A stretch of 64,000 bases of DNA from Gammaproteobacteria bacterium. Its GTDB lineage: Bacteria > Pseudomonadota > Gammaproteobacteria > Eutrophobiales > Eutrophobiaceae. Below are positions 3,404 to 64,000 of the stretch, in pieces. Under the pieces are notes generated by a model. That model saw only the letters and a program-made list of their open reading frames with translations, had not been told where the DNA came from and did not search any database. The DNA lies in contig OZ241347.1 of the NCBI GenBank assembly GCA_965200295.1, forward strand, positions 3,390,093 through 3,454,092, in the 5' to 3' direction. Every line of letters starts with the position of its first letter. Position 1 is the first letter of the stretch. The translations under genes and the position numbers were made by a program.

Positions 3404-4234
3404 TCAATTTTCAAGCTCATACTCTGCTGCGTCCTCACGTATCTCCAGCGCGTTGCTCTCATCCTCAAGTAAACCGCGGACTGCCTCATAAACCTCAAGA
3501 TGATTCAACGATTTTCCGGAACGCAGGCGCATGAACCTGATAACGTGTGCAGGCGTAACATCAGGGAGGTTAAGAGATGCCTCAATCGCTACTGGCTTTC
3601 TTGCCGCCTGAAGGTCAAGAAAGCTGACTGTCACCAGGCTCCTTCGGTGTTTGCGAGGACGCGCATTCAATTGCCAGAACTCAACCACACCCTTGTCCCG
3701 GTAACTCAGACGCTTTTCCTTTGCTTCGTGCGTAAGTCCTACTTCAACCACCAGGTCCGCGGGCACCCGGAACGTGTACGCATCGCCCTCTTCCTCACTC
3801 CGGGCATGTGCCTGAACATAATCCAGCGCTTTGCGTCCAAAGTAGAAACTGCAATCTGCCTCGTTGCCGGTGTTCTTCGGTTCATATTCACGACGCCAGC
3901 GAGTATTACGCAACTGTTCTATCCTGACCCCTTGCAAGGTGGCAACACAACTGACAAAACGGTCGATATCGCCGGTAACCCACTCATGTCTTCCGCTTGG
4001 CGCCATCAACATCACCAGACCTCGCACCGGGTCCAGCACTACCCGCCGGAAGGCATTTACCAGACCGGATTCAGCCATTGCGGCTACCTCATCCCGGCTT
4101 GCGCGAAAAGTCACGTACTCCGAGCCAAACGATGTTCGCTTGACCTGCTTTAAGTGTTCGCGTAATTTGTCCTCTATATTCGGAGAGTCAAGGTTGGCAG
4201 GCAGTGTGGTTGCGCTATACATAATATCCTTCAT
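3404..4234 (-). CDS. Uma2-family (DUF820) PD-(D/E)xK putative endonuclease
   Basis: 276 aa; motif PADLVVEVGLTHEAKEK...VVEFWQL matches the Uma2 PD..EVK core, with a longer N-terminal extension than typical. Confidence 0.5.
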   Translation of the reverse strand: MKDIMYSATTLPANLDSPNIEDKLREHLKQVKRTSFGSEYVTFRASRDEVAAMAESGLVNAFRRVVLDPVRGLVMLMAPSGRHEWVTGDIDRFVSCVATLQGVRIEQLRNTRWRREYEPKNTGNEADCSFYFGRKALDYVQAHARSEEEGDAYTFRVPADLVVEVGLTHEAKEKRLSYRDKGVVEFWQLNARPRKHRRSLVTVSFLDLQAARKPVAIEASLNLPDVTPAHVIRFMRLRSGKSLNHLEVYEAVRGLLEDESNALEIREDAAEYELEN

Positions 4235-4474: not shown

Positions 4475-4807
4475 GTGGCCAAGAATTTCGCTCCTTGGCT
4501 ACACCTGAAAAACCGCGACAACTGGGACAAACCGTCGGATGCCAGAGATGATAACGCCCATCTGATGGTGCAATGCATGGAAACCTGGTTTCTTGCAGAC
4601 AAAGACTCGTTGGCAGCTTTTTTCGGAAACGGTTTTAACAGTAATGCCCTGCCGAAGCAAACGGATATCGAAAACATACCCAAAGACGACATCACCAGCG
4701 GGATGAGAAGGGCGACAACCCGATGCAAGCCGAAAGGCGTATATCATAAGGTAACCTCTAAAAATGCCCTCCGTGGCATTTTTAGACACGGAAATGAAAA
4801 AGTGTGA
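4475..4807 (+). pseudogene. C-terminal fragment resembling a DUF4276-type protein
   Basis: 110-aa ORF (LMVQCMETWFLADKDSLAAFFGNGF) with no plausible N-terminal domain and no RBS. It runs into a MITE-like repeat, so likely a remnant. Confidence 0.25.
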
Positions 4808-4903
4808 TTTTTCATTTCCTTCATTTTCAAGCACTTACGTGCTTAAAAATGGCAGCACATCCCTGTGCTGCACGGTCACCTCTAATTAATAGAGGTGACC
4901 ATA
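4751..4903. repeat. MITE/REP-like multi-hairpin element, full copy (hairpins A-B-C-D-E)
   Basis: Five consecutive near-perfect stem-loops (cctctaaaaatgcc..ggcatttttaga; ggaaatgaaaaa..tttttcatttcc; aagcac ttac gtgctt; gcagcaca..tgtgctgc; ggtcacctcta..tagaggtgacc). The same modules recur at 24866-25015 in inverted order. Confidence 0.75.
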
Positions 4904-5138
4904 AGGGGAATCATTCATTCGCCATTCTCGCCCAACTGAACCCCGATAAGGTCATGGAGCTTTCACCTCATGCAAACCGGCTTGTTGAAACTTTGTCGGA
5001 TAAGGCCATAGCAAGATGAGGAAAAGAAGCTTCCCTAACGACATGACAAAAAAATGACAATCGCATCAAACTCTTAACATCTTTTTCATATAAATCTCCA
5101 CAAGTTGTCACATTTTTTCGGGAAAATCTGTTTCCCAA

Positions 5139-8456: not shown

Positions 8457-8611
8457 CAGCTATTCCCGCTAAATACCGGGGTTAGCGGGAACTACCGGGC
8501 AGGCAGCAGCGTGAATGAGCTGGAATGACATGGTAACCTCTAAAAATGCCCTCCGTGGCATTTTTAGGGGCGCCTATATGCTACACTGGGCGAAAAGCAG
8601 AGGAACACACA

Positions 8612-9689: not shown

Positions 9690-9813
9690 GCCGGAATGCC
9701 GTCAAACTTACGGGAACCTCTAAAACGCCCTCCATGGTATTTTTAGAGGCGCCTGTTACAGACACCCCCGAAATGTCAAGGAGGCATTTTTAAGGTTCAG
9801 GGAGGGAGAGTTC

Positions 9814-16058: not shown

Positions 16059-16133
16059 TTGGACTTGTTTCAGTGTGTTGGTGGCTTATAGTAAGCCCTG
16101 AAAATGCCTTCCGTGGCATTTTCAGGGATGCCT

Positions 16134-16439
16134 TTATGTTATCCCTAACCGGTCATTCCGGGCGGCGTAGTCGTCGAGTTGTGCTTTGGACGCTTCCTGC
16201 TGGTGTTGGTCTTTCCATTCACGGTAGGGCATCCCATAGATAATTTCCCGGGCCTGTTCGTAGTCCAGTTCCTCGCCGCGTTCTTCTGCCGCAGCGCGGT
16301 ACCACTTCGACAGGCAGTTCCGGCAAAAGCCGGCCAGGTTCATCAGGTCTATGTTCTGCACCTCGGTATGTTCGCGCAGGTATTGCGCCAGGTGGCGGAA
16401 CGTAGCCGCCTCAATGGCTTGTCGGGTATCGTCATTCAT
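16134..16439 (-). CDS. DUF1244-family protein (copy 1)
   Basis: 101 aa with FCRNCLSKWY motif. About 90% identical to the 25130..25426 paralog. Confidence 0.6.
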   Translation of the reverse strand: MNDDTRQAIEAATFRHLAQYLREHTEVQNIDLMNLAGFCRNCLSKWYRAAAEERGEELDYEQAREIIYGMPYREWKDQHQQEASKAQLDDYAARNDRLGIT

Positions 16440-16532
16440 ATCTCTCTCCGGTCAGTTTCTGTGAGTAGCAGGGACGGTCACATTCCGTCCGTAACGCCTC
16501 CAGGGACTATCTGAAAATGTCTTCTACCCCAA

Positions 16533-17880
16533 TCATTCAAGGTTATATTTCTGTATCCGGTAACGCAGGGCCATGCGGGTGATGCCCAGCTCCCGCGCGG
16601 CTTTGGAAACGTTGCCATTGCATTTTTCCAGGGCATTCCTGATCAGCATCAGTTCTGCGTCACCCAGTGTCAAGTCGGTCTCCGTGCCGGGCGCGGCCGG
16701 CGCGTTCAGAGCCAGACTCTCGGGCGATAACTGGCCGCCACCGGACAGTAGCACGGCGCGTTCAATCATGTGTTTCAGTTCGCGCACATTGCCAGGCCAG
16801 TGATACGACCTGAGCGCCTGCGCCGCCGCCGCCGACAGGCTGAGCCCGGGCAGGCCGTAACGTCTGGCATTCTGCTGCATGAAATGCCGGGCCAGCAACA
16901 GTACGTCAGCGCCGCGTTCCCGTAACGGCGCCAGCGTAATGGACAACACGTTCAGGCGGTAATACAGGTCGGAACGGAATCCCCCCCGTTGTGCCAGCGC
17001 CGCCAGATCCCGGTTGGTGGCGGCGATAATCCAGGCTGCCACCGGGCGCTCCCTGGTGGTGCCCACCTTGCGTAGCGTCCTGCGTTCCAGCACCGCCAGC
17101 AGTTTGGCTTGCAAGTCCATGGGCAACTCGCCGATCTCATCCATGAACAGCACGCCGTCCTCCGCCGCTTCGATCAAACCGGTGCGCGCCGTGTGCGCGC
17201 TGGTGAAGGCGCCTTTTTCATGGCCGAACAGCTCCGCTTCGATCAAGTCTTTGGGCAGGCTGGCGCAATCCACATGCACAAACGGCCGTAGTGCGCGGGC
17301 GCTGTTGGCATGCAGCAGCCGTGCCACCACATCCTTGCCGGTGCCGGTCTCGCCGAGAATCAGGATCGTGGGCGGCATACTGGCGGCCGTCACCTGTTGC
17401 AGGCGTTCAATCTGTTGCCGCACCGCCGTAATGGCGGGGCTGGCGCCGAGCAAATCCACGCCTTCATGGGCATGTTGCTCGCGCTTGCTGGAATAGGTCA
17501 GCTTTTGTGAGAGCTCATCCTGTTCCAGCACCCGCTCCACGGTGAGCAATAACTCATCGAGGTCAATCGGCTTTTTCAGGTAGTCAGACGCGCCTGATTT
17601 CATGGCCGACACGGCATTCTCAATCTCACCATAAGCCGACATCACTAGCACCGGGAAGGCATTGGCGGCGTCATCCTGCAAGCCGGCCAGAAAATCCAGC
17701 CCGGAACCGTCGGGCAGACGCATGTCCAGCAACAGCAGGTCCGGCGTCGCCTCCTGGAGTTTTGTCGCGCCTTCGCCCACCGCCCCCGGCAAACACCGCC
17801 TCGTCCTCAACAATCAGGACGCGCCGCTGCATACGCGGCACCTCGGTTTCAGTAACGAACGGATTGCTGTGCATAGCCAT
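16533..17880 (-). pseudogene. sigma54-dependent response regulator (NtrC family), copy 1, disrupted
   Basis: AAA+ sigma54-activator core (GETGTGKDVVARLLH, GAFTSA) and Fis HTH are intact. The receiver domain is split between ORFs 17671..17880 and 16533..17813 by a ~51-nt deletion relative to copy 2. There is no adjacent kinase. Confidence 0.6.
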
Positions 17881-17952
17881 AGCGCCAATACTCTTTCAAC
17901 CTGATATTACCATGTTCAGCGGGCCGGCAACCCTGCACCTGCCGAGGCGCAC

Positions 17953-18216: not shown

Positions 18217-18638
18217 TGAAATCTCCCAGGGTAGTCCCATTCAGTAACGCAAAGCTGTCAGGCATCTTGCCCATCGCAGACCGGCGAAAGTCTATCGATA
18301 CCGGCCTGACTTGAACAATGTGGTGAATAGTATAGTCGCATACTGGCAACTGTTCAAGCTGCTTACTTACCGGGTTGGTCTGACCAGCGAATTAACCGCC
18401 CGCGATGCAAGCACTACCAAGACCATGTTAGCCGGTAACTGGAAGACCTCTCGCATGGTTGCTCACTATTCCGCCGGCGCCACAGCGGGGCAAACTACAC
18501 GGATGTAGTTTGCAAATCATCTATCCTGACGATTTGTCATTTTCAAGCACTGACGTGCTTAAAAATGGCAGCCTATCCATAATGCTGCACGGCCACCTCT
18601 AATTTTTAGAGGTGGCCTTGTGTGTTTATTGAGTTTGG

Positions 18639-19490: not shown

Positions 19491-19741
19491 CGTCGGATTT
19501 TCTCACAAATTGCAGCAACTGTCAATACTATAGCGGGGCTTTTATGGAGTTCCTGACGAGGCAGCCCATCGCCCCACAAGATCCATCCTATACCGTTCTG
19601 ACGCTTTGTCAAATGCGGATTTCCGGGATGTCGAATTGCCGACATGCAACAGGCGGCAGGAAGAGTAAGGCCCGCCTCTGTCTGCAAAATTACTGGCAAA
19701 ATACCGATTGACCTTTCTTTTTATCAAACAAACTGACAAAA

Positions 19742-19786
19742 CATGGTTGTAAAATATCATTTAATTTGATATTTTACAACCATGTT
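19742..19786. promoter_or_regulatory. perfect 19-bp inverted repeat with 7-nt AT spacer (candidate operator) overlapping a sigma70-like promoter
   Basis: acatggttgtaaaatatca-tttaatt-tgatattttacaaccatgt. TTGACA at about 19733 with a TATCAT about 16 nt downstream. Lies between the divergent poly-G gene and the AAA+ gene. Confidence 0.5.
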
Positions 19787-22624: not shown

Positions 22625-22772
22625 GACTCAGTTCTCAGTCTGGCGACAGGGATACAGTAGCGGCCTGAAGCGCTGCCCCTGTCAGGTAGTATAAGGGGCT
22701 CTAAAAATGCCACGGAGGGCATTTTCAGAGGTTACCATAATACCACCGAAAAATTTGGGAAACACTCACACA

Positions 22773-24670: not shown

Positions 24671-24865
24671 GATTCGGCAATGCGATAAAAGCCGCATTTC
24701 ACATCAACAACGAAAACAAACGTAATATTGTTATCGACTGCTTGATTAGGAATTTCCAAGAGCACGCAGAAACCAACGCCGAACTCGGAGTACGATTATT
24801 TGGTCATTGCGTTTCGATTCTGGTTGCCGCAGCATTCAGTATCTTGCTGATTTGGTTGCTTTATG

Positions 24866-25015
24866 GTCACCTCTATTAATTAGAGGTGACCGTGCAGCAC
24901 ACGGATGTGCTGCCATTTTTAAGCACGTAAGTGATTGAAAATGAAGGAAATGAAAAATCAAACTTTTTCATTTCCGTCTCTAAAAATGCCACGGATGGCA
25001 TTTTTAGAGGTTACC
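24866..25015. repeat. MITE/REP-like multi-hairpin element, full copy, inverted orientation (E-D-C-B-A)
   Basis: Same five hairpin modules as 4751-4903 in reverse order. Confidence 0.75.
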
Positions 25016-25129
25016 TTATGATTCGTACAAAGCCGAGTATTTTGATTTCTTCAAAATGCTGCTAAGCTCAAGTCTTGTTGGTATCGTAGTAGGTGGTGTT
25101 GCCACTTATTTCATCAAGAAGTAAGATAA

Positions 25130-25426
25130 TTACTCCCCCGGCTGCCGCGCGGCGTAGGTGTCGAGCTGCTCCTTAGATGCTTGCTGCTGGTGTTGGTCTT
25201 TCCACTCGCGATAGGGTATCCCGTAGATGATTTCCCGGGCCTGTTCATAGTCCAGCGCCTCGCCGCGTTCTTCTGCCGCGGCGCGGTACCATTTGGACAG
25301 GCAGTTCCGGCAAAAACCGGCCAGATTCATCAGGTCTATGTTCTGCACCTCGGTATGTTCACGCAGGTATTGCACCAGGTGGCGAAACGTGGCCGCCTCA
25401 ATGGCTTGTCGAGTGGCGTCATTCAT
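25130..25426 (-). CDS. DUF1244-family protein (copy 2)
   Basis: 98 aa; paralog of 16134..16439. Confidence 0.65.
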   Translation of the reverse strand: MNDATRQAIEAATFRHLVQYLREHTEVQNIDLMNLAGFCRNCLSKWYRAAAEERGEALDYEQAREIIYGIPYREWKDQHQQQASKEQLDTYAARQPGE

Positions 25427-25487
25427 ATCTCTCTCCGGTCAGTTGCTGTGAATAGCGGGGACTACCTGAAAATACCCCCTGCCCCAA

Positions 25488-26915
25488 TCATTCAAGGTTA
25501 TATTTCTGTATCCGGTAGCGCAGGGCCATGCGGGTGATGCCCAATTCCCGCGCCGCTTTGGAAACGTTGCCCTGGCATTTTTCCAGGGCGTTTTTGATCA
25601 GCATCAGTTCCGCATCGCCCAGTGTCAAGTCCGTATCGGCGCCGGGCGACAGATTCAGACCCGTCTCCGTGTCGGGCTGCGCCGGCGTACTCAGGGCCAG
25701 ATTCTCGGGCGCTAACTCGCCGCCACCGGATAGTAACACCGCGCGTTCGATTATATGTTTCAACTCGCGCACATTGCCGGGCCAGTGATACGACCTGAGC
25801 GCCTGCGCCGCCGCCGCCGACAGGCTGAGGGCGGGTATCCCGTAACGGCGGGCGTTCTGCTGCATGAAATGCTGCGCCAGCAATAGCACATCAGCGCCAC
25901 GTTCCCGTAATGGCGCCAGGGTGATGGACAGTACGTTCAGGCGGTAGTACAGGTCGGAACGGAACTCACCGCGCCGCGCCAGTTCCTCAATATCGCGGTT
26001 AGTGGCGGCGATAATCCAGGCCGCCACCGGCCGCTCCCTGGTGGCGCCCACCTTGCGCAGCGTCCGGCGCTCCAGCACGGCCAGCAGCTTTGCCTGCAAG
26101 TCCATGGGCAATTCGCCGATCTCATCCATGAACAGCACCCCGTCTTCCGCCGCTTCGATCAAACCGGTCCTGGCCGTATGGGCGCTGGTAAAGGCGCCTT
26201 TTTCATGGCCGAACAGTTCGGCCTCAATTAAGTCCTTGGGCAGGCTGGCACAATCCACATGCACGAACGGCCGTTCCCCGCGGGCGCTGTCGGCATGCAG
26301 CCGCCGCGCCACCACATCCTTGCCGGTGCCGGTCTCACCAAGGATCAGGATGGTAGGCGGCGCACTGGCGGCTGTCACCTGTTGCAGGCGCTCGATCTGC
26401 TGGCGCACCGCCTTGATCGCGGAGCTCTCACCGAGAAAGTCCGCGCCTTCATGAGCATGTTGTTCGCGCTTGCTGGAATAGGTCAGCTTTTGTGAAAGCT
26501 CATTCTGTTCCAGCGCCCGCGCCACGACGAGCAGCAACTCATCGAGGTCAATAGGCTTTTTCAGATAATCGGACGCGCCCGATTTCATGGCCGACACCGC
26601 GTCCTCAATTTCACCATAAGCGGACATCACCAGCACCGGAAACGCGTTGGCGTCGTTACCCTGCAGGTCGGCGAGAAAATCGAGCCCGGAGCCATCGGGC
26701 AGGCGCATGTCCAGCAACAGCAGGTCCGGCGTCGCCTCCTTGAGTTTGGCCGCGCCGGCGGCCAACGTCCCGGCAATGTCAGCCTGATACCCCGCCCGCG
26801 TCAGGCGCTTGCGCACCGCCCCGGCAAACACCGCCTCATCCTCTATGATCAGGATCTGCTGATTCAGGCGTGGCACCTCGGTTTCGGTAACGAACGGATT
26901 GCTGTGCATAGCCAT
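25488..26915 (-). CDS. sigma54-dependent two-component response regulator (NtrC family)
   Basis: Start at MAMHSN. Intact REC domain (ILIIEDE...LLLLDMRLPDGSG), AAA+ sigma54 activator (GETGTGKDVVARRLH, ESELFGHEKGAFTSA), C-terminal Fis-type HTH. Confidence 0.85.
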   Translation of the reverse strand: MAMHSNPFVTETEVPRLNQQILIIEDEAVFAGAVRKRLTRAGYQADIAGTLAAGAAKLKEATPDLLLLDMRLPDGSGLDFLADLQGNDANAFPVLVMSAYGEIEDAVSAMKSGASDYLKKPIDLDELLLVVARALEQNELSQKLTYSSKREQHAHEGADFLGESSAIKAVRQQIERLQQVTAASAPPTILILGETGTGKDVVARRLHADSARGERPFVHVDCASLPKDLIEAELFGHEKGAFTSAHTARTGLIEAAEDGVLFMDEIGELPMDLQAKLLAVLERRTLRKVGATRERPVAAWIIAATNRDIEELARRGEFRSDLYYRLNVLSITLAPLRERGADVLLLAQHFMQQNARRYGIPALSLSAAAAQALRSYHWPGNVRELKHIIERAVLLSGGGELAPENLALSTPAQPDTETGLNLSPGADTDLTLGDAELMLIKNALEKCQGNVSKAARELGITRMALRYRIQKYNLE

Positions 26916-26934
26916 AGCGCCAGTGCTCTTTTGT

Positions 26935-28401: not shown

Positions 28402-28450
28402 TTGTGCATCCTATCATAGCAACCATCTAAAAATGCCCTGCGTGGCATTT

Positions 28451-46675: not shown

Positions 46676-46896
46676 TTGCGAAAAATCTCCTCGTTGAACT
46701 GTGTTACAGGCGCCTCTAATTTTTAGAGGTTACTTTATGAGAACCTCTGATTTTCAGAGGCGCTTTTTTTCGCTATTTTGACGTATAACCCTGGTAGATA
46801 CAATATTAAAACGGGCTCAGCCCAGCTGACAAGGCAGTTCAATTTGCTGTAGCATAGCGTTAAATGAAAAAATGCCACAAAGTCAGAGGTGACAAG

Positions 46897-55983: not shown

Positions 55984-56092
55984 TGGTGTAAATAATCTTG
56001 GCCGTTCCCGCTAAATAGTATCAGGCAACCACTAAAATACTCTCCGTGGCATTTTTAGAGGCACCCATCGGGCATCGCAATGGCATATTGCT

Positions 56093-59255: not shown

Positions 59256-60338
59256 CTAGTGTGCTGTCCCGGAAATAACTGTGCATAATCTTTCTACTTT
59301 GTTGAGGATGGATTCAGCCGTGGCAGTCCACACGAAAGGCCGGGTGTTGGCGTTGTAGTGATTCACAAACTGCTTGATTTTGCTGATGAGTTGTTTGACT
59401 GAGGAGAAAGACCCTCGCCGGATAGCTTTTTGTGTGATGAGTCCAAACCAGCGTTCCACCTGATTGAGCCATGAGGCATAGGTGGGGGTGTAATGCACAT
59501 GGTACCGGGGCCGTTGTGCCAGCCAGGCTTTGACCTTGGCATGTTTGTGGGTCGCATAATTGTCGATAATCAGGTGCACATCGAGGTCGGCGGGGACGTT
59601 GCGGTCGATATGCCGCAGGAAGGCCAGGAATTCCTGGTGTCGATGGCGTTTGCGACATTGGGTCATGACGCTGCCGGTGGCGACATCGAGGGCGGCAAAC
59701 AAGGTGGTGGTGCCATGGCGGATGTAGTCGTGGGTGACGCCCTCGACATAGCCCAGTCCCAGGGGCAACAACGGTTGCGTGCGTTCTAATGCCTGGATTT
59801 GGCTTTTCTCATCGACACACAGGACTACGGCGTGGTCGGGCGGGTTCAGGTACAGGCCAACGATATCGCGCACTTTCTCGATAAAGAACGGGTCGTTGGA
59901 CAGCTTGAAGGTGCGTTGTCGCTGGGGTTGTATGCCGAACAGGGTGAACCAGCGCTGCACGGTGCTTTTTGAGATGCCGGTCTGCTTGGCCAGGGTGCGC
60001 ACTGTCCAATGGGTGCTGCCGGCCGGTGTCGATTGCAGGGCGGTGTTGATGACCTCGGCCACCCGTTCATCGTCGTGGCGGCGCGGACGCCCGGCGCGTA
60101 GTTCGTCGTGCAAGCCTTCCAGACCGTGTTCGAGGTAGCGTTTGCGCCATTTGGCGACGGTGTTCTTGTTCAAACGCAAGCGTGCGGCGATGGCGCTGCC
60201 GGGTTCGCCTTCGGCGCAGGCCAGCACAATCTGGGCGCGTTGGACCAGGCCGTGGGGCAAGCTGCGTGATTGGGCGAGGCTAAGCAACTGCTTGTTTTCA
60301 TCCTGGTTGAGTACAATGGGGGGCGCAGTACGTGGCAT
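59256..60338 (-). CDS. IS630-family (Tc1/mariner-like) transposase
   Basis: HTH N-terminus and DDE core (VLCVDEKSQIQAL...LIIDNYATHK...WLNQVERWF). Confidence 0.85.
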   Translation of the reverse strand: MPRTAPPIVLNQDENKQLLSLAQSRSLPHGLVQRAQIVLACAEGEPGSAIAARLRLNKNTVAKWRKRYLEHGLEGLHDELRAGRPRRHDDERVAEVINTALQSTPAGSTHWTVRTLAKQTGISKSTVQRWFTLFGIQPQRQRTFKLSNDPFFIEKVRDIVGLYLNPPDHAVVLCVDEKSQIQALERTQPLLPLGLGYVEGVTHDYIRHGTTTLFAALDVATGSVMTQCRKRHRHQEFLAFLRHIDRNVPADLDVHLIIDNYATHKHAKVKAWLAQRPRYHVHYTPTYASWLNQVERWFGLITQKAIRRGSFSSVKQLISKIKQFVNHYNANTRPFVWTATAESILNKVERLCTVISGTAH

Positions 60339-60400
60339 GAGATGTTCTCCGGTGAGTGGGCTCATGCTTATAGTACCATTTATTTATGGGACAGTACACT
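59259..60400. mobile_element. IS630-family insertion sequence with imperfect terminal inverted repeats and TA target duplication
   Basis: Left end tagtgtgctgtcccggaaataa, right end reverse-complement tagtgtactgtcccataaataa. TA at 59257-58 and 60401-02. Confidence 0.7.
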
Positions 60401-60589: not shown

Positions 60590-61057
60590 ATGAGCAGTAC
60601 CGCCCTGTACAGAGCATTCATCGACGCTGGCGCGTCGGAAGAAAAGGCCACCCTGGCCGCAGAGGATGTTGTTCAAGTGTCCCAGCTACCACAACTGGCA
60701 ACGAAGTCTGACATGTTAGTCCTGGAGGCCAATATGGCAACCAAGGCTGACATTTCAGTCTTGGAGACCAACATGGCAACGAAGGCTGATATTTCAAATA
60801 TGGCCACGAAGGCCGACATTTCAGTTCTGGAGGCCAATATGGCAACCAAGGCTGATATTTCAAATATGGCCACGAAGGCTGATATTTCAGACATGGCAAC
60901 CAAATCAGATATTTCAGACTTGGAAGCCCGTATGGCAACAAAATCTGATATTTCGGTCAACTCGGCAAAACTGGAACTACGGATGATTAAATGGATAGTG
61001 GGCAGCGGTTTGATTTACACCAGTATTATTATCGCCGGTTTCAGTCTGCTCGCATAA
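60590..61057 (+). CDS. DUF1640-like coiled-coil repeat protein with C-terminal membrane anchor (paralog b)
   Basis: 155 aa; N-terminus identical to paralog a, with a different number and arrangement of 9/13-aa repeat units (KADISNMAT / KADISVLEANMAT) and a TM tail. Confidence 0.6.
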   Translation: MSSTALYRAFIDAGASEEKATLAAEDVVQVSQLPQLATKSDMLVLEANMATKADISVLETNMATKADISNMATKADISVLEANMATKADISNMATKADISDMATKSDISDLEARMATKSDISVNSAKLELRMIKWIVGSGLIYTSIIIAGFSLLA

Positions 61058-61155: not shown

Positions 61156-64000
61156 TTACATTAGTACGAAGTCGCCCACGACTATGGCTGAGTCGAAGAT
61201 GGTAATCGTGCCGCCACCTTCATAGCTAGTTAGATCGATGACGATAATGCCATTTTCTGCCTCCGGTATAGTGACGGAACCAATTAATGCTTCGCCCGCA
61301 TCATTTTTGAAAGCGCTTAGGTCAATCTTATCTCTAGTTGTCTCAAAGTCCATGATGTAATCATCTCCATGACCTGGTTCAAAGACGAACCTATCATCAC
61401 CAGGGCCGCCGTCGAGCCAGTCGTTGCCGGCGCCGCCGTTGAGGGTGTCGTTGTCCTCGCCGCCGTAGATTTCATCGTCGCCGGCGCCGCCGTTGATGGT
61501 GTCCTTGCCGTCTTCTCCATAGAGGGTGTTGGCGCTGCTGGTGCCGTTGATCTCGTTGTTGAAACGGTCGCCGATGCTGCCGCTGATTTTCTTGGTGTAG
61601 AAGATGAAGTTGTCGGGGGTCAGGCCGTGGAAATCGTTATCGGTGTTATTGAATCCAGTCGGGGCGTTCAACCTGAGCTCGCCGCCGTTGGGCAGGTCGA
61701 TCTCAATATCACCTCCCCGGTCGGATATATCATCTTTCAGATCATCCATGGATGCGATAGAATTAAAGGCACTCAGGTCGATCTTGTCCTGGCCGCCAGT
61801 AATCGTAAATTGGTTGATCTCATCATCGCCGTCGCCAGAGGCAAACACGAAGGTATCACTCCCGGCGGCGCCAGTAAGGGTATCATCACCCCTGCCGCCG
61901 GTAATGGCACTACCTCCGCTGGCAGCGGTCAGGGTATCAGCGAAATTGGAACCGATGATATTGACAATGTTCTCTGCCAGTGTGTCTCCTGCGGCATAAC
62001 CACCTGTTTCATTAGCAGTGCCATCCAATGTTACCATGACACCCACATTAGACCTGATATAGGAGACGGTGTCCGACCCGTCGGCACCACCGTCGATATT
62101 ATCGGCGCTCCTGCCGGCGATGAAGGTGTCATCGTAACTTGAGCCTACGTACCGCTCTATATCTTCAAACGTATCACCGGCAGCATCACCCGTGCTGGCG
62201 TTGCCGCCGCTCAGGTCGAGGGTGATGCCGGCTGTGGCATTGGCGTAGGTGGCGATGTCTGCTGTCCCGGCGCCACCTTCCAGCTTATCTCTGCCGGGGC
62301 CGCCTTCCAGGGTATCATTTCCGCCACCGCCCTTGAGGGTGTCGTTGCCGCCCATTCCACGCAGCATGTTGGCTTCACTATTACCGGTCAGTGTGTCGGC
62401 GCCGCAGGAGCCGATGATATTATTAAAACCCGTTGCAATATCGCCGGTTGCATCGCCGCGGCTGACTTTGATGATGGCCAGAGATGCCGATCCGTCTCCA
62501 TTGAACCGAGTCACTTCAGCTGGAGTCAGGACTCGATTAGTGATGTCATTCAAATCCACGGTCACTGCGGAACCGGAGCCTTCATAGGACAAAAAGTCAC
62601 CGGGAGAACCGATAAGCCGGTCGCTTTGAGAGCCGCCCTCCACCTTACTATTGCCGCCGCCGGTGATTACGTCACTCCCACTGCCACCCTTGAGAGTATT
62701 CAGCATAATACCTTCGCTACTTCCGCCCCCCATTATGATGTCGTTGCCACTGCCGCCTTCGATGACGTTGGGTTGGGTATCACCGGTGAGCATGTCGTCG
62801 TAAGAACTACCGATGAGGTTTTCGAAATTAGCGCCTATCATGTCACCTTCTGCATAGGTGCCTCTGTTAGCGGCGACGTCAGCAGGACCCCCCCCCAGTG
62901 TTACTGTGACACCTTTATTTCTAATAATATTATTACCTTCGTCTCGAGCTTGAGGCGAACCCGCGTAAGACAGGGTATCTGTGCCGGCGCCGCCGTCCAG
63001 CGTATCACCGCCAGCCTGGCCGTTGATAACATCATCACCGCTGCCGCCATGTAAGCGGTCGTTACCATTGCCGCCGTTAATCCTGTCGTTACCAGCGCCG
63101 CCCCAGATGTAGTTGACACCCGAGGTGCCAGTGATGCTGTCATTGCCATCGTTGTTGAATCTGAAATTTGCTTCGTTGAGACCCGTGATGGCTGTGCCGA
63201 CATTTATCTCCTGGCTGCTGGAAATTCGGATTACATTCTCATTGGTGACATTGCCATCACCATCGACTTGTGCAGTGATATAAAAACCTCGACCAAAAGC
63301 GCTCAGGTCCAGAATGTCCCCGGTAGCTGTGGGGTCGAAACCTGTAATCGTATCGTCCCCGTCGCCGCGGGAAAATACGAAGGTATCGCGACCGCCGTCG
63401 CCAGTCAGCGTGTCATCGCCGCGGCCGCCTATGAGGGTATCATCCCCTTCACCACCGCTAATCATATCGTTACCACCGCGCCCCTCTATCACGTTAGCGC
63501 TACCATTACCGGTCAATACGTCATGGAAGCCATCGCCCGTACCATTAACTTTCGTCGCATCTGTACTGACATTGGTGCCGATGATATTCTCGAAGCCCAG
63601 CAGGGTATCTCCCGTTTCGTAGGGCTTGTAATTAGCGAGGGGCGGTGTTATGCCTAATGAACCGTTTCCAGTCTGGGTATTGGTGTCAACATCAGTGTTA
63701 GGTATATCCACTACAACCGCAGCTCTGGTAGAGCGCTCATAAGAAATCGTGTCTGTCCCACCGCCGCCGGTGATATAGTCCGGATTAGGCCCGGCGTAAA
63801 AGAAGTCGTCGTGGTTTGAGCCGACAAAGCGCTCGATGTCGATAAAGGTATCGCCCCGGGCATCGCCCTGGCCGCTGCTGTTGCGGATGGTGATGACGCC
63901 GTTGCTTTCCGAAACCGAACTCAAGTCCACAGTGACGCCTGCGGCAGCGTTTGCGTAGGTGACAATATCGAAGCCGTCGTCGGCGGCTTCATCGTCACCG
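61156..64000 (-). CDS. giant RTX-type Ca2+-binding repeat protein, 3' part (gene continues beyond the window end)
   Basis: At least 924 aa of GGxGxDxL repeats. The last ~160 codons are ~95% identical at DNA level to the 3' end of the gene at 35626..40116 on the opposite strand. Confidence 0.8.
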   Translation of the reverse strand, partial: GDDEAADDGFDIVTYANAAAGVTVDLSSVSESNGVITIRNSSGQGDARGDTFIDIERFVGSNHDDFFYAGPNPDYITGGGGTDTISYERSTRAAVVVDIPNTDVDTNTQTGNGSLGITPPLANYKPYETGDTLLGFENIIGTNVSTDATKVNGTGDGFHDVLTGNGSANVIEGRGGNDMISGGEGDDTLIGGRGDDTLTGDGGRDTFVFSRGDGDDTITGFDPTATGDILDLSAFGRGFYITAQVDGDGNVTNENVIRISSSQEINVGTAITGLNEANFRFNNDGNDSITGTSGVNYIWGGAGNDRINGGNGNDRLHGGSGDDVINGQAGGDTLDGGAGTDTLSYAGSPQARDEGNNIIRNKGVTVTLGGGPADVAANRGTYAEGDMIGANFENLIGSSYDDMLTGDTQPNVIEGGSGNDIIMGGGSSEGIMLNTLKGGSGSDVITGGGNSKVEGGSQSDRLIGSPGDFLSYEGSGSAVTVDLNDITNRVLTPAEVTRFNGDGSASLAIIKVSRGDATGDIATGFNNIIGSCGADTLTGNSEANMLRGMGGNDTLKGGGGNDTLEGGPGRDKLEGGAGTADIATYANATAGITLDLSGGNASTGDAAGDTFEDIERYVGSSYDDTFIAGRSADNIDGGADGSDTVSYIRSNVGVMVTLDGTANETGGYAAGDTLAENIVNIIGSNFADTLTAASGGSAITGGRGDDTLTGAAGSDTFVFASGDGDDEINQFTITGGQDKIDLSAFNSIASMDDLKDDISDRGGDIEIDLPNGGELRLNAPTGFNNTDNDFHGLTPDNFIFYTKKISGSIGDRFNNEINGTSSANTLYGEDGKDTINGGAGDDEIYGGEDNDTLNGGAGNDWLDGGPGDDRFVFEPGHGDDYIMDFETTRDKIDLSAFKNDAGEALIGSVTIPEAENGIIVIDLTSYEGGGTITIFDSAIVVGDFVLM

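Follow-up and report, generated by a model that had tools for sequence, protein, structure and literature searches.

The REP/BIME palindromes and REPIN-RAYT systems of Escherichia coli are associated with Y1 RAYT transposases and have possible roles as transcript stabilisers or terminators; a conserved GTAG lies on the 5' side of their palindrome and, to our knowledge, REPs have neither a target-site duplication (TSD) nor TIRs. The Correia elements of Neisseria and the enterobacterial ERIC sequences are MITE-like units of about 100-160 bp whose highly structured transcripts can affect transcription or mRNA stability in either orientation. Both fold as one long hairpin by pairing of their TIRs, and Correia duplicates TA. 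RUP has been connected with an IS630-type element that duplicates TA, as the IS630 family does, while the IS5 group is characterised by short TIRs and a 4-bp duplication. BOX is modular (boxA/B/C), with neither a clear TSD nor a known partner. In general, MITEs are smaller than 500 bp, AT-rich and intergenic, with TIRs, flanking direct repeats and stable stem-loops, and are mobilised in trans by insertion sequences (ISs) (PMC10969869). SPRITE is described as terminator-like (PMC10969869). The pairing of IS5-family ISs with MITEs through their TIRs is already known (PMC4596501): the type II MITEs BrickBuilt, MITE293 and MITE700 of Porphyromonas gingivalis have been matched to ISPg1/3/4/9, and the ATR element of Neisseria to ISNme1 (PMC4596501).

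We describe here a family of 151-bp repeats found in a 64,000-nt stretch of DNA (hereafter the window) from an uncultured gammaproteobacterium. It is a previously undescribed MITE with a probable IS5-family partner; the class itself is already known. Like type II MITEs (PMC4596501), it is small, non-coding, dispersed and mostly intergenic, its TIR is its only similarity to an IS, and the probable partner belongs to the IS5 family. It differs from BrickBuilt in its regular 4-bp TSD, those of BrickBuilt being irregular, and in an interior made of five separate palindromes instead of a minisatellite. Unlike in the P. gingivalis and Neisseria MITEs, compensatory changes preserve its architecture across subfamilies, and its hosts are uncultured Gammaproteobacteria of sponge microbiomes. 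With the BOX, RUP and SPRITE repeats of Streptococcus pneumoniae (PMC10969869) it shares a short, structured and intergenic nature but no sequence relationship; pneumococcal elements are reported to insert into one another (PMC10969869), and here a nested insert lies in hairpin A. The mosaic of short palindromes, present in solo and clustered forms between genes, recalls REP/BIME, from which the family is set apart by its TIRs, its TSD and a DDE-type IS, while its five local hairpins and 4-bp duplication distinguish it from Correia and ERIC. A full-text literature search of incomplete coverage, using the terminal and core sequences and sponge-symbiont MITEs as queries, found no description of the family.

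The window is chromosomal, with clpA, mutL, miaA, hfq, tsaE, efp and parC-like genes, and its species is represented by the MAG GCA_026710345.1 and by contigs labelled ROBB21. No tRNA or tmRNA gene was found in it, and Rfam gave nothing at gathering score across the window and, for copy 1 at E <= 10, nothing meaningful, the best value being E = 0.49. The core motif ACCTCTAWWAAT, with at most one mismatch, occurs 16 times where 0.29 occurrences are expected. Besides two full copies, the window holds an interrupted and a truncated one, along with solo hairpins, six of type A and two of type E (Table 1). The first-pass annotation had described the two full copies as inverted relative to each other, each with five stem-loops, and this description holds: they are 97% identical (97% complementary over 162 nt), and five consecutive hairpins, A to E, are predicted by folding on either strand of either copy. 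The predicted energies, -76 to -83 kcal/mol, compare with about -34 ± 4 kcal/mol for dinucleotide shuffles (z = -10 to -12), none of 200 shuffles being equally good. The element consists wholly of these five hairpins and has no coding capacity.

An alignment of full copies with their flanks gave sharp boundaries. The left terminus reads [A/G]G[G/T]AACCTCTAAAAAT... (longer form [A/G]G[G/T]AACCTCTAAAAATGCC) and the right one ...ATTTTTAGAGGTGCCC, with the general form CCTCTAATTTTTAGAGG[T/C]GCCC-3' and, as reverse complement, GGGCACCTCTAAAAAT (GGTCACCTCTATTAAT in the window copies). Together they form an imperfect TIR of about 16 nt, present in at least 25 copies. Hairpin A is the left terminus followed by an inverted copy of itself, and hairpin E is built in the same way from the right terminus; because both termini are themselves palindromes, CCTCTAA and TTTTTAGAGG recur as direct repeats at both ends of the element. 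A covariance model built on 25 full copies (151 positions, 58 pairs) recovered the full, the partial and most of the solo copies of the window.

Table 1. Copies of the repeat family in the window, their hairpins, and the candidate partner IS (positions in the window; CM, covariance model)
Feature	Position	Strand	Details
Full MITE copy 1	4750..4900	+	CM 165 bits, E 9e-44
Copy 1 hairpins	A 4758-4785, B 4790-4819, C 4822-4851, D 4852-4871, E 4874-4900		
Copy 1 TSD	4746-4749 and 4901-4904		ATAA
Full MITE copy 2 (flagged by the first-pass annotation)	24865..25015	-	CM 168 bits, E 2e-44
Copy 2 TSD	24861-24864 and 25016-25019		TTAT (+ strand)
Hairpin A			CCTCTAAAAATGCC-N6-GGCATTTTTAGAG
Hairpin B			GGAAATGAAAAA-N6-TTTTTCATTTCC
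Hairpin C			CATTTTCAAGCAC-N4-GTGCTTAAAAATG
Hairpin D			GCAGCACA-N4-TGTGCTGC
Hairpin E			GGTCACCTCTAA-TTAAT-AGAGGTGACC
Full copy interrupted within hairpin A	34255..34541	-	TSD TACA at 34251-34254 and 34542-34545
Unrelated small element nested in hairpin A, after CTCTAAA	34375..34507	+	133-nt insertion
5'-truncated copy, hairpins C + D + E	18537..18617	+	
Solo hairpin A	8532..8575	+	5' terminus of left-end type, 3' terminus of right-end type
Solo hairpin A, partly decayed	9712..9754	+	~60 nt past the hfq stop, convergent genes on either side
Solo hairpin A	16090..16133	+	compensatory A-T to G-C change (CTGAAAATGCC / GGCATTTTCAG)
Solo hairpin A	22695..22736	-	divergent intergenic region; TTAT on both sides in element orientation
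Solo hairpin A	28418..28462	+	between comEC and a histidine kinase gene; flanked by direct repeat ATCAT
Solo hairpin A, degenerate	56023..56066	+	upstream of efp; detected by blastn only
Solo hairpin E type, short terminus-terminus palindrome	46709..46733	-	weak CM match, E 0.17
Solo hairpin E type, followed by a T7 run	46741..46763	+	terminator-like; weak CM match, E 0.25
IS5-family insertion sequence, candidate autonomous partner	42645..43926	-	ends AGGCAACCTCTATAAATAGCC and (reverse complement) GGGCACCATCTATTAATTC
Transposase gene of that IS	42810..43850	-	346 aa, DUF772 + DDE_Tnp_1

The repeats listed by the first-pass annotation are present where it had placed them, to within a few bases. 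Its partial and solo copies were all found, but those given at 34256-34377 and 34503-34537 are not separate copies: they are the two ends of the single interrupted element, with its own TSD. Nearly all copies are intergenic, as had been claimed for the whole set, but two calls extend into copies by a few codons: a DUF4276 fragment at 4475-4807 and the ORF for ComEC, whose stop is at 28451. The DUF4276 ORF, on the + strand, covers only positions 72-166 of the 192 of the domain model. With its final ~19 codons and its stop inside copy 1, it probably represents the remnant of a gene truncated by the MITE insertion. The spurious N-terminal extensions ascribed to the repeat were confirmed from gene calls on related contigs for a TPP enzyme, called with 542 aa against a 564-aa ORF that starts inside a solo hairpin, and for CesT, called with 166 aa and not 188; MIFRFPHFQALTCLKMAA is the minus-strand reading of the interrupted copy.

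On the outside, all solo A hairpins of the window end in a left-type sequence (G[G/T/C]AAC) on one side and a right-type sequence (G[C/T]GCC) on the other, and short direct repeats flank most of them (for instance TTAT/TTAT at 22695-22736 and ATCAT/ATCAT at 28418-28462). Such ends are expected after an internal deletion, and we read the solo hairpins as deletion derivatives: recombination between internal direct repeats, which for solo A would be TTTTTAGAGG and for solo E CCTCTAA, would leave the two termini in place together with the initial duplication, in the manner of a solo LTR. We infer that this origin is more likely for solo A than transposition of a 41-bp element, and the solo hairpins could also be minimal elements in their own right. 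A weak covariance-model match at 19746-19780 was rejected as a family member, being an unrelated perfect AT-rich palindrome: 21-bp arms (AAACATGGTTGTAAAATATCA-N7-TGATATTTTACAACCATGTTT) at 19738-19786 overlap the start of an AAA_14/DUF4143 ATPase ORF and bear no relation to the MITE. A segmental duplication of 85-90% identity (16158-17896 / 25145-26931) carries a DUF1244 gene and a sigma-54 response regulator, and the solo copy at 16090 and the full copy at 24865 each adjoin one of the duplicates. They do not represent one shared paralogous insertion, as the homology between the segments begins inside the gene; the two insertions are independent.

The duplication of the target was assessed on 29 elements, whose flanking 5-mers match at 120 of 145 positions compared to 65 ± 5 for shuffled pairings, a value reached in none of 10,000 shuffles. 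Since the mismatches are almost confined to the fifth base, the TSD is 4 bp long. TSDs are A/T-rich and differ between copies (TTAA, TTTA, TTAT, ATAA, TAAT, TGTA and others); read in element orientation, ATAA flanks both full copies of the window. TIRs, TSD, small size, lack of coding capacity and many dispersed copies identify the family as a MITE (PMC10969869), and it has every structural trait by which MITEs are recognised. The first-pass annotation had proposed looking for TSDs and for the presence or absence of copies in related strains. TSDs were found as described above, but no empty site or presence/absence polymorphism of a MITE copy was seen in 13 same-species contigs (L001-L006, L057-L062), which all carry the same copies. 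An apparent indel in L004 is a run of N. Between species, the insertions in L019 and L028 are independent, and the site of L023 orthologous to a MITE site of L033 is not empty but holds a different palindromic element. The latter (L023:513-672, in MAG RHO3_bin_19) is a ~160-nt element with long inverted repeats (CCGCAGATGACGCAGATGAACGCAGAT...) and may belong to another MITE family.

The repeat had been proposed to be a single family of non-autonomous mobile elements, with confinement to this locus or failure to align as the outcomes that would speak against it. The copies align as one family and are found in further genomes and metagenomes, dispersed, with TIRs and 4-bp TSDs, and an IS5-family IS has matching ends. 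A scan for the hairpin A pattern, in which each bacterial species was represented by a single genome, gave at least 40 loci; the matches listed come from at least nine species representatives, all MAGs labelled Gammaproteobacteria plus one labelled Alteromonadaceae, and across the loci of these MAGs the whole ~150-bp five-hairpin unit is 84-93% identical. A pattern derived from hairpins C-D yielded 28 metagenome loci, mostly from LXNI01 and MKWU01, which are metagenomes of the sponges Sarcotragus foetidus and Aplysina aerophoba (PMC5099237). In the 562 kb of fetched loci, 66 matches to the covariance model were counted. The MAG RHO3_bin_19 has six 100% identical copies at six loci with differing flanks and duplications, which points to recent amplification. 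The family is common in uncultured sponge-associated Gammaproteobacteria.

The IS5-family IS of the window is the candidate autonomous partner. Its transposase reaches 281 bits on NCBIfam NF033581, an IS5-family model with a cut-off of 140. Among the IS5-family transposases on sequenced plasmids, none is more than 55% identical to it. Aligned with one gap each, the termini of the IS and of the MITE agree at 17 of 19 and 16 of 17 positions, the MITE ends being GGTAACCTCTAAAAAT-GCC on the left and GGTCACC-TCTATTAATT on the right; the left IS end is the sole exact match to ACCTCTAWWAAT in the window outside the repeat family. The inverted repeats IRL and IRR of the window IS match at 13 of 16 positions, and its flanks are imperfect (TTTA vs TTAT), which suggests a rearrangement at the site. 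Direct repeats of ~0.95 kb (40817-41774 / 43941-44704, 84-95% identical) bracket this IS together with an NYN-domain gene (41888-42514). Ten homologous IS copies (L047-L056), with transposases 73-81% identical, all end AGGAACCTCTATTAATTCA... / ...AATT[T/A]ATAGAGGTTCCC (also given as AGGAACCTCTATTAAT / ATTTATAGAGGTTCCC, and as AGGAACCTCTAT...), and all ten have perfect 4-bp duplications (TACA, ATAT, TTAA, ATAA, TTTA, ACAA). The covariance model found no match in these ten loci, and there was no MITE within 1.5 kb of a homologous IS; IS and MITE occur together in the genome of the window and in contig CBDBDW010000002, and one of the ten IS copies lies in a chromosome where the MITE is present as well. 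Both have the terminal GGAACCTCTA, the same duplication length and a preference for A/T-rich targets. Their similarity is limited to the terminal ~11-16 nt and their interiors are unrelated, the pattern of type II MITEs reported for other IS5-family elements (PMC4596501). We consider that the MITE is probably mobilised in trans by an IS5-family transposase. In the proposed mechanism, the DDE transposase would bind the shared ~16-bp termini of the MITE, and insertion at A/T-rich sites with a 4-bp staggered cut would produce the 4-bp duplication. The IS of the window would be the specific driver, a point of which we are somewhat less certain than of the mobility as a whole.

The agreement between these ends might instead reflect distant common ancestry only, the MITE being moved by another transposase. 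It is true that merely 11-16 terminal nt are common to the two elements, that the right end of the MITE is usually GGTGCCC where the IS has GGTTCCC, and that no IS was recovered for the different termini of the diverged subfamilies. However, the two agree in TSD length, target bias and terminal sequence and co-occur in at least two genomes, and the only other transposase of the window belongs to the TA-duplicating IS630 family, which does not fit; we judge a different enzyme unlikely. The modular mosaic of short palindromes, with solo units of 27-44 nt, a high copy number and an intergenic location, also recalls REP/BIME-type repeats spread by a RAYT (IS200/IS605-like Y1) transposase and not by a DDE enzyme, and 'REP-like' was an alternative offered by the first-pass annotation. 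This idea is hardly credible. The TSDs are clear and the TIRs match a DDE IS, whereas REP/RAYT elements make no TSD and have no TIR-matched DDE partner, so that the label finds no support; moreover, the conserved GTAG was not found next to the hairpins, and no Y1 (RAYT-type) transposase appeared among the ~50 window ORFs scanned against Pfam. Native regulatory elements of the host, whether a terminator family or a small-RNA gene, multiplied by segmental duplication would account for the very stable predicted structure, the strong covariation and the terminator-like motifs described below. They would not account for copies whose flanks are unrelated except for the 4-bp duplication, which occur in both orientations and whatever the kind of intergenic context, some cutting into ORF ends, nor for the different palindromic element at the orthologous intergenic site of another species, and we regard such an origin as very improbable.

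The interior of the element is conserved to an unexpected degree. Diverged metagenome subfamilies with different termini retain all five hairpins in unchanged order. Among them are one with the terminus GGGAAACTCTGAAAAATCC..., whose TSDs are TTAG, TTAA or CTTG, and another, rich in G+C, from a contig labelled Hain-H51 (TSD TAAT). In a model-guided alignment of 60 distinct copies, fitted to the structure and with hairpins A and D fixed by their respective scan patterns, 95.6% of cells are paired; the invariance of hairpin A in the genome-derived set is an artefact of the pattern required by the scan. Two-sided changes were seen at 48 of the 58 pairs, against 18.8 ± 2.0 in shuffles and 13-21 when the partners were slid by 1-3 columns, and compensatory cells numbered 251 against 48 ± 6 in shuffles. 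A smaller MAFFT-based set gave the same direction (9 pairs vs 5.5 ± 1.3). One-sided G-U cells are rare (~27), indicating that full Watson-Crick complementarity is what is kept. A strand asymmetry of wobble pairs (G-T 27 vs A-C 65) was rejected as evidence because two inherited mismatches dominate the count. Nearly all copies have TCCN in the loops of both hairpin A and hairpin D, on the same strand. Neither these loops nor the complementarity of five palindromes over deep divergence is predicted by the ordinary MITE model.

A consensus scan detected terminator-like patterns on both strands, hairpin B followed by TTCATTTTCA and, on the other strand, hairpin D followed by CATTTTTAAG. Both T-runs are outer arms of hairpin C, conserved in all subfamilies; they are short, and hairpin B has only 3 G-C pairs. 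No orientation preference relative to neighbouring ORFs was found with crude ORF-based gene calls (30:27 and 26:31), and copies occur alike in tandem, convergent and divergent contexts. Because B and D precede these T-runs on opposite strands, a bidirectional transcription stop or insulator is the role that we find most likely for the hairpins, as a tentative proposal that stays short of probable; the first-pass annotation had already suggested that the element may act as a terminator or insulator. A two-way stop would make insertion tolerable in either orientation, might lessen its harm and would explain the missing orientation bias. It is also possible, though somewhat doubtful, that the MITE is purely selfish, with no role in transcription, and that its hairpins are kept by neutral templated correction of quasi-palindromes through intra-strand template switching during replication. 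Such correction would produce the near-exclusive full Watson-Crick changes reported above, two-sided cells far outnumbering one-sided G-U ones, and is consistent with the absence of orientation bias and of any Rfam match; in L019 the loop of hairpin A is flipped with its stem unchanged, as palindrome dynamics would give. Alone, however, it would not ensure that subfamilies with different termini all have five hairpins in unchanged order and spacing, nor that the loops of A and D keep their sequence on one strand, and the window copies at 9712, 34508 and 56023 have decayed to imperfect palindromes. As solo copies decay, correction is not efficient.

Returning to a function of the hairpins, a bolder and rather unlikely version is that the five-hairpin core is a selected portable module, acting as a bidirectional stop or insulator or as a folded ssDNA form needed for transposition, which would long have been kept while the termini diverged to follow different IS5-type transposases, with hairpin A serving in addition as the landing site of a second tiny element, inserted twice at an identical position and polymorphic between strains. 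This small element, without TIRs, has subterminal hairpins and ends CCYTCATGATCAGG...AAATTTACATAGC, and it lies after CCTCTAAA in two copies of hairpin A: the 133-nt insertion of the window and a 63-nt relative at the identical position in contig L059 (~4013-4075). The 63-nt version is missing from the window and from L057 and L058, of the same species, and is thus a strain-level polymorphism. One possibility is that the nested element is non-autonomous and site-specific (IS200/IS605- or IS110-like), with the MITE hairpin as its target. In three loci of OZ220714 (L020:5057-5130, L022 and L030), the same ~70-nt double-hairpin insert, CCAATCGGCAGGACTGCCGATTGG...GTGACGTTCAGGATGAACGTCAC, occupies the loop of hairpin C; it is either a nested repeat or the mark of a longer MITE subfamily.

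The family combines a clean pair of MITE and IS5-family IS, with a regular 4-bp duplication, and an internal structure stricter than MITE theory requires. What raises it above a routine case is this strictly conserved five-hairpin interior, together with the solo derivatives and the tiny strain-polymorphic element found twice at the same base of hairpin A. In practical terms, an abundant 151-bp repeat causes false N-terminal extensions and truncated gene calls in sponge-symbiont genomes, which are now assembled in large numbers, and the family model would allow annotators to mask it. Should bidirectional termination at the hairpins be borne out, the MITE would act as a mobile insulator and redraw the boundaries of operons in the genomes of symbionts. 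The repeat also appears to fragment short-read assemblies, as suggested by the MAG contig L062 (GCA_026710345.1, JAPORE010000111), which ends ~40 nt before MITE copy 2.

Other features are present in the window. The IS630-family transposase (59256-60365, - strand; NF033545, 273 bits) lies between the parC-like genes and RTX-type repeat proteins. Large proteins of this type, with GGxGxD nonapeptide repeats, are encoded on both strands (35626-40116, 61156-63930, 45432-46240 and 60590-61057), and paired 66-nt and 27/39-nt tandem coding repeats are found as inverted copies at 45.6-46.2 kb and 60.5-61.0 kb.
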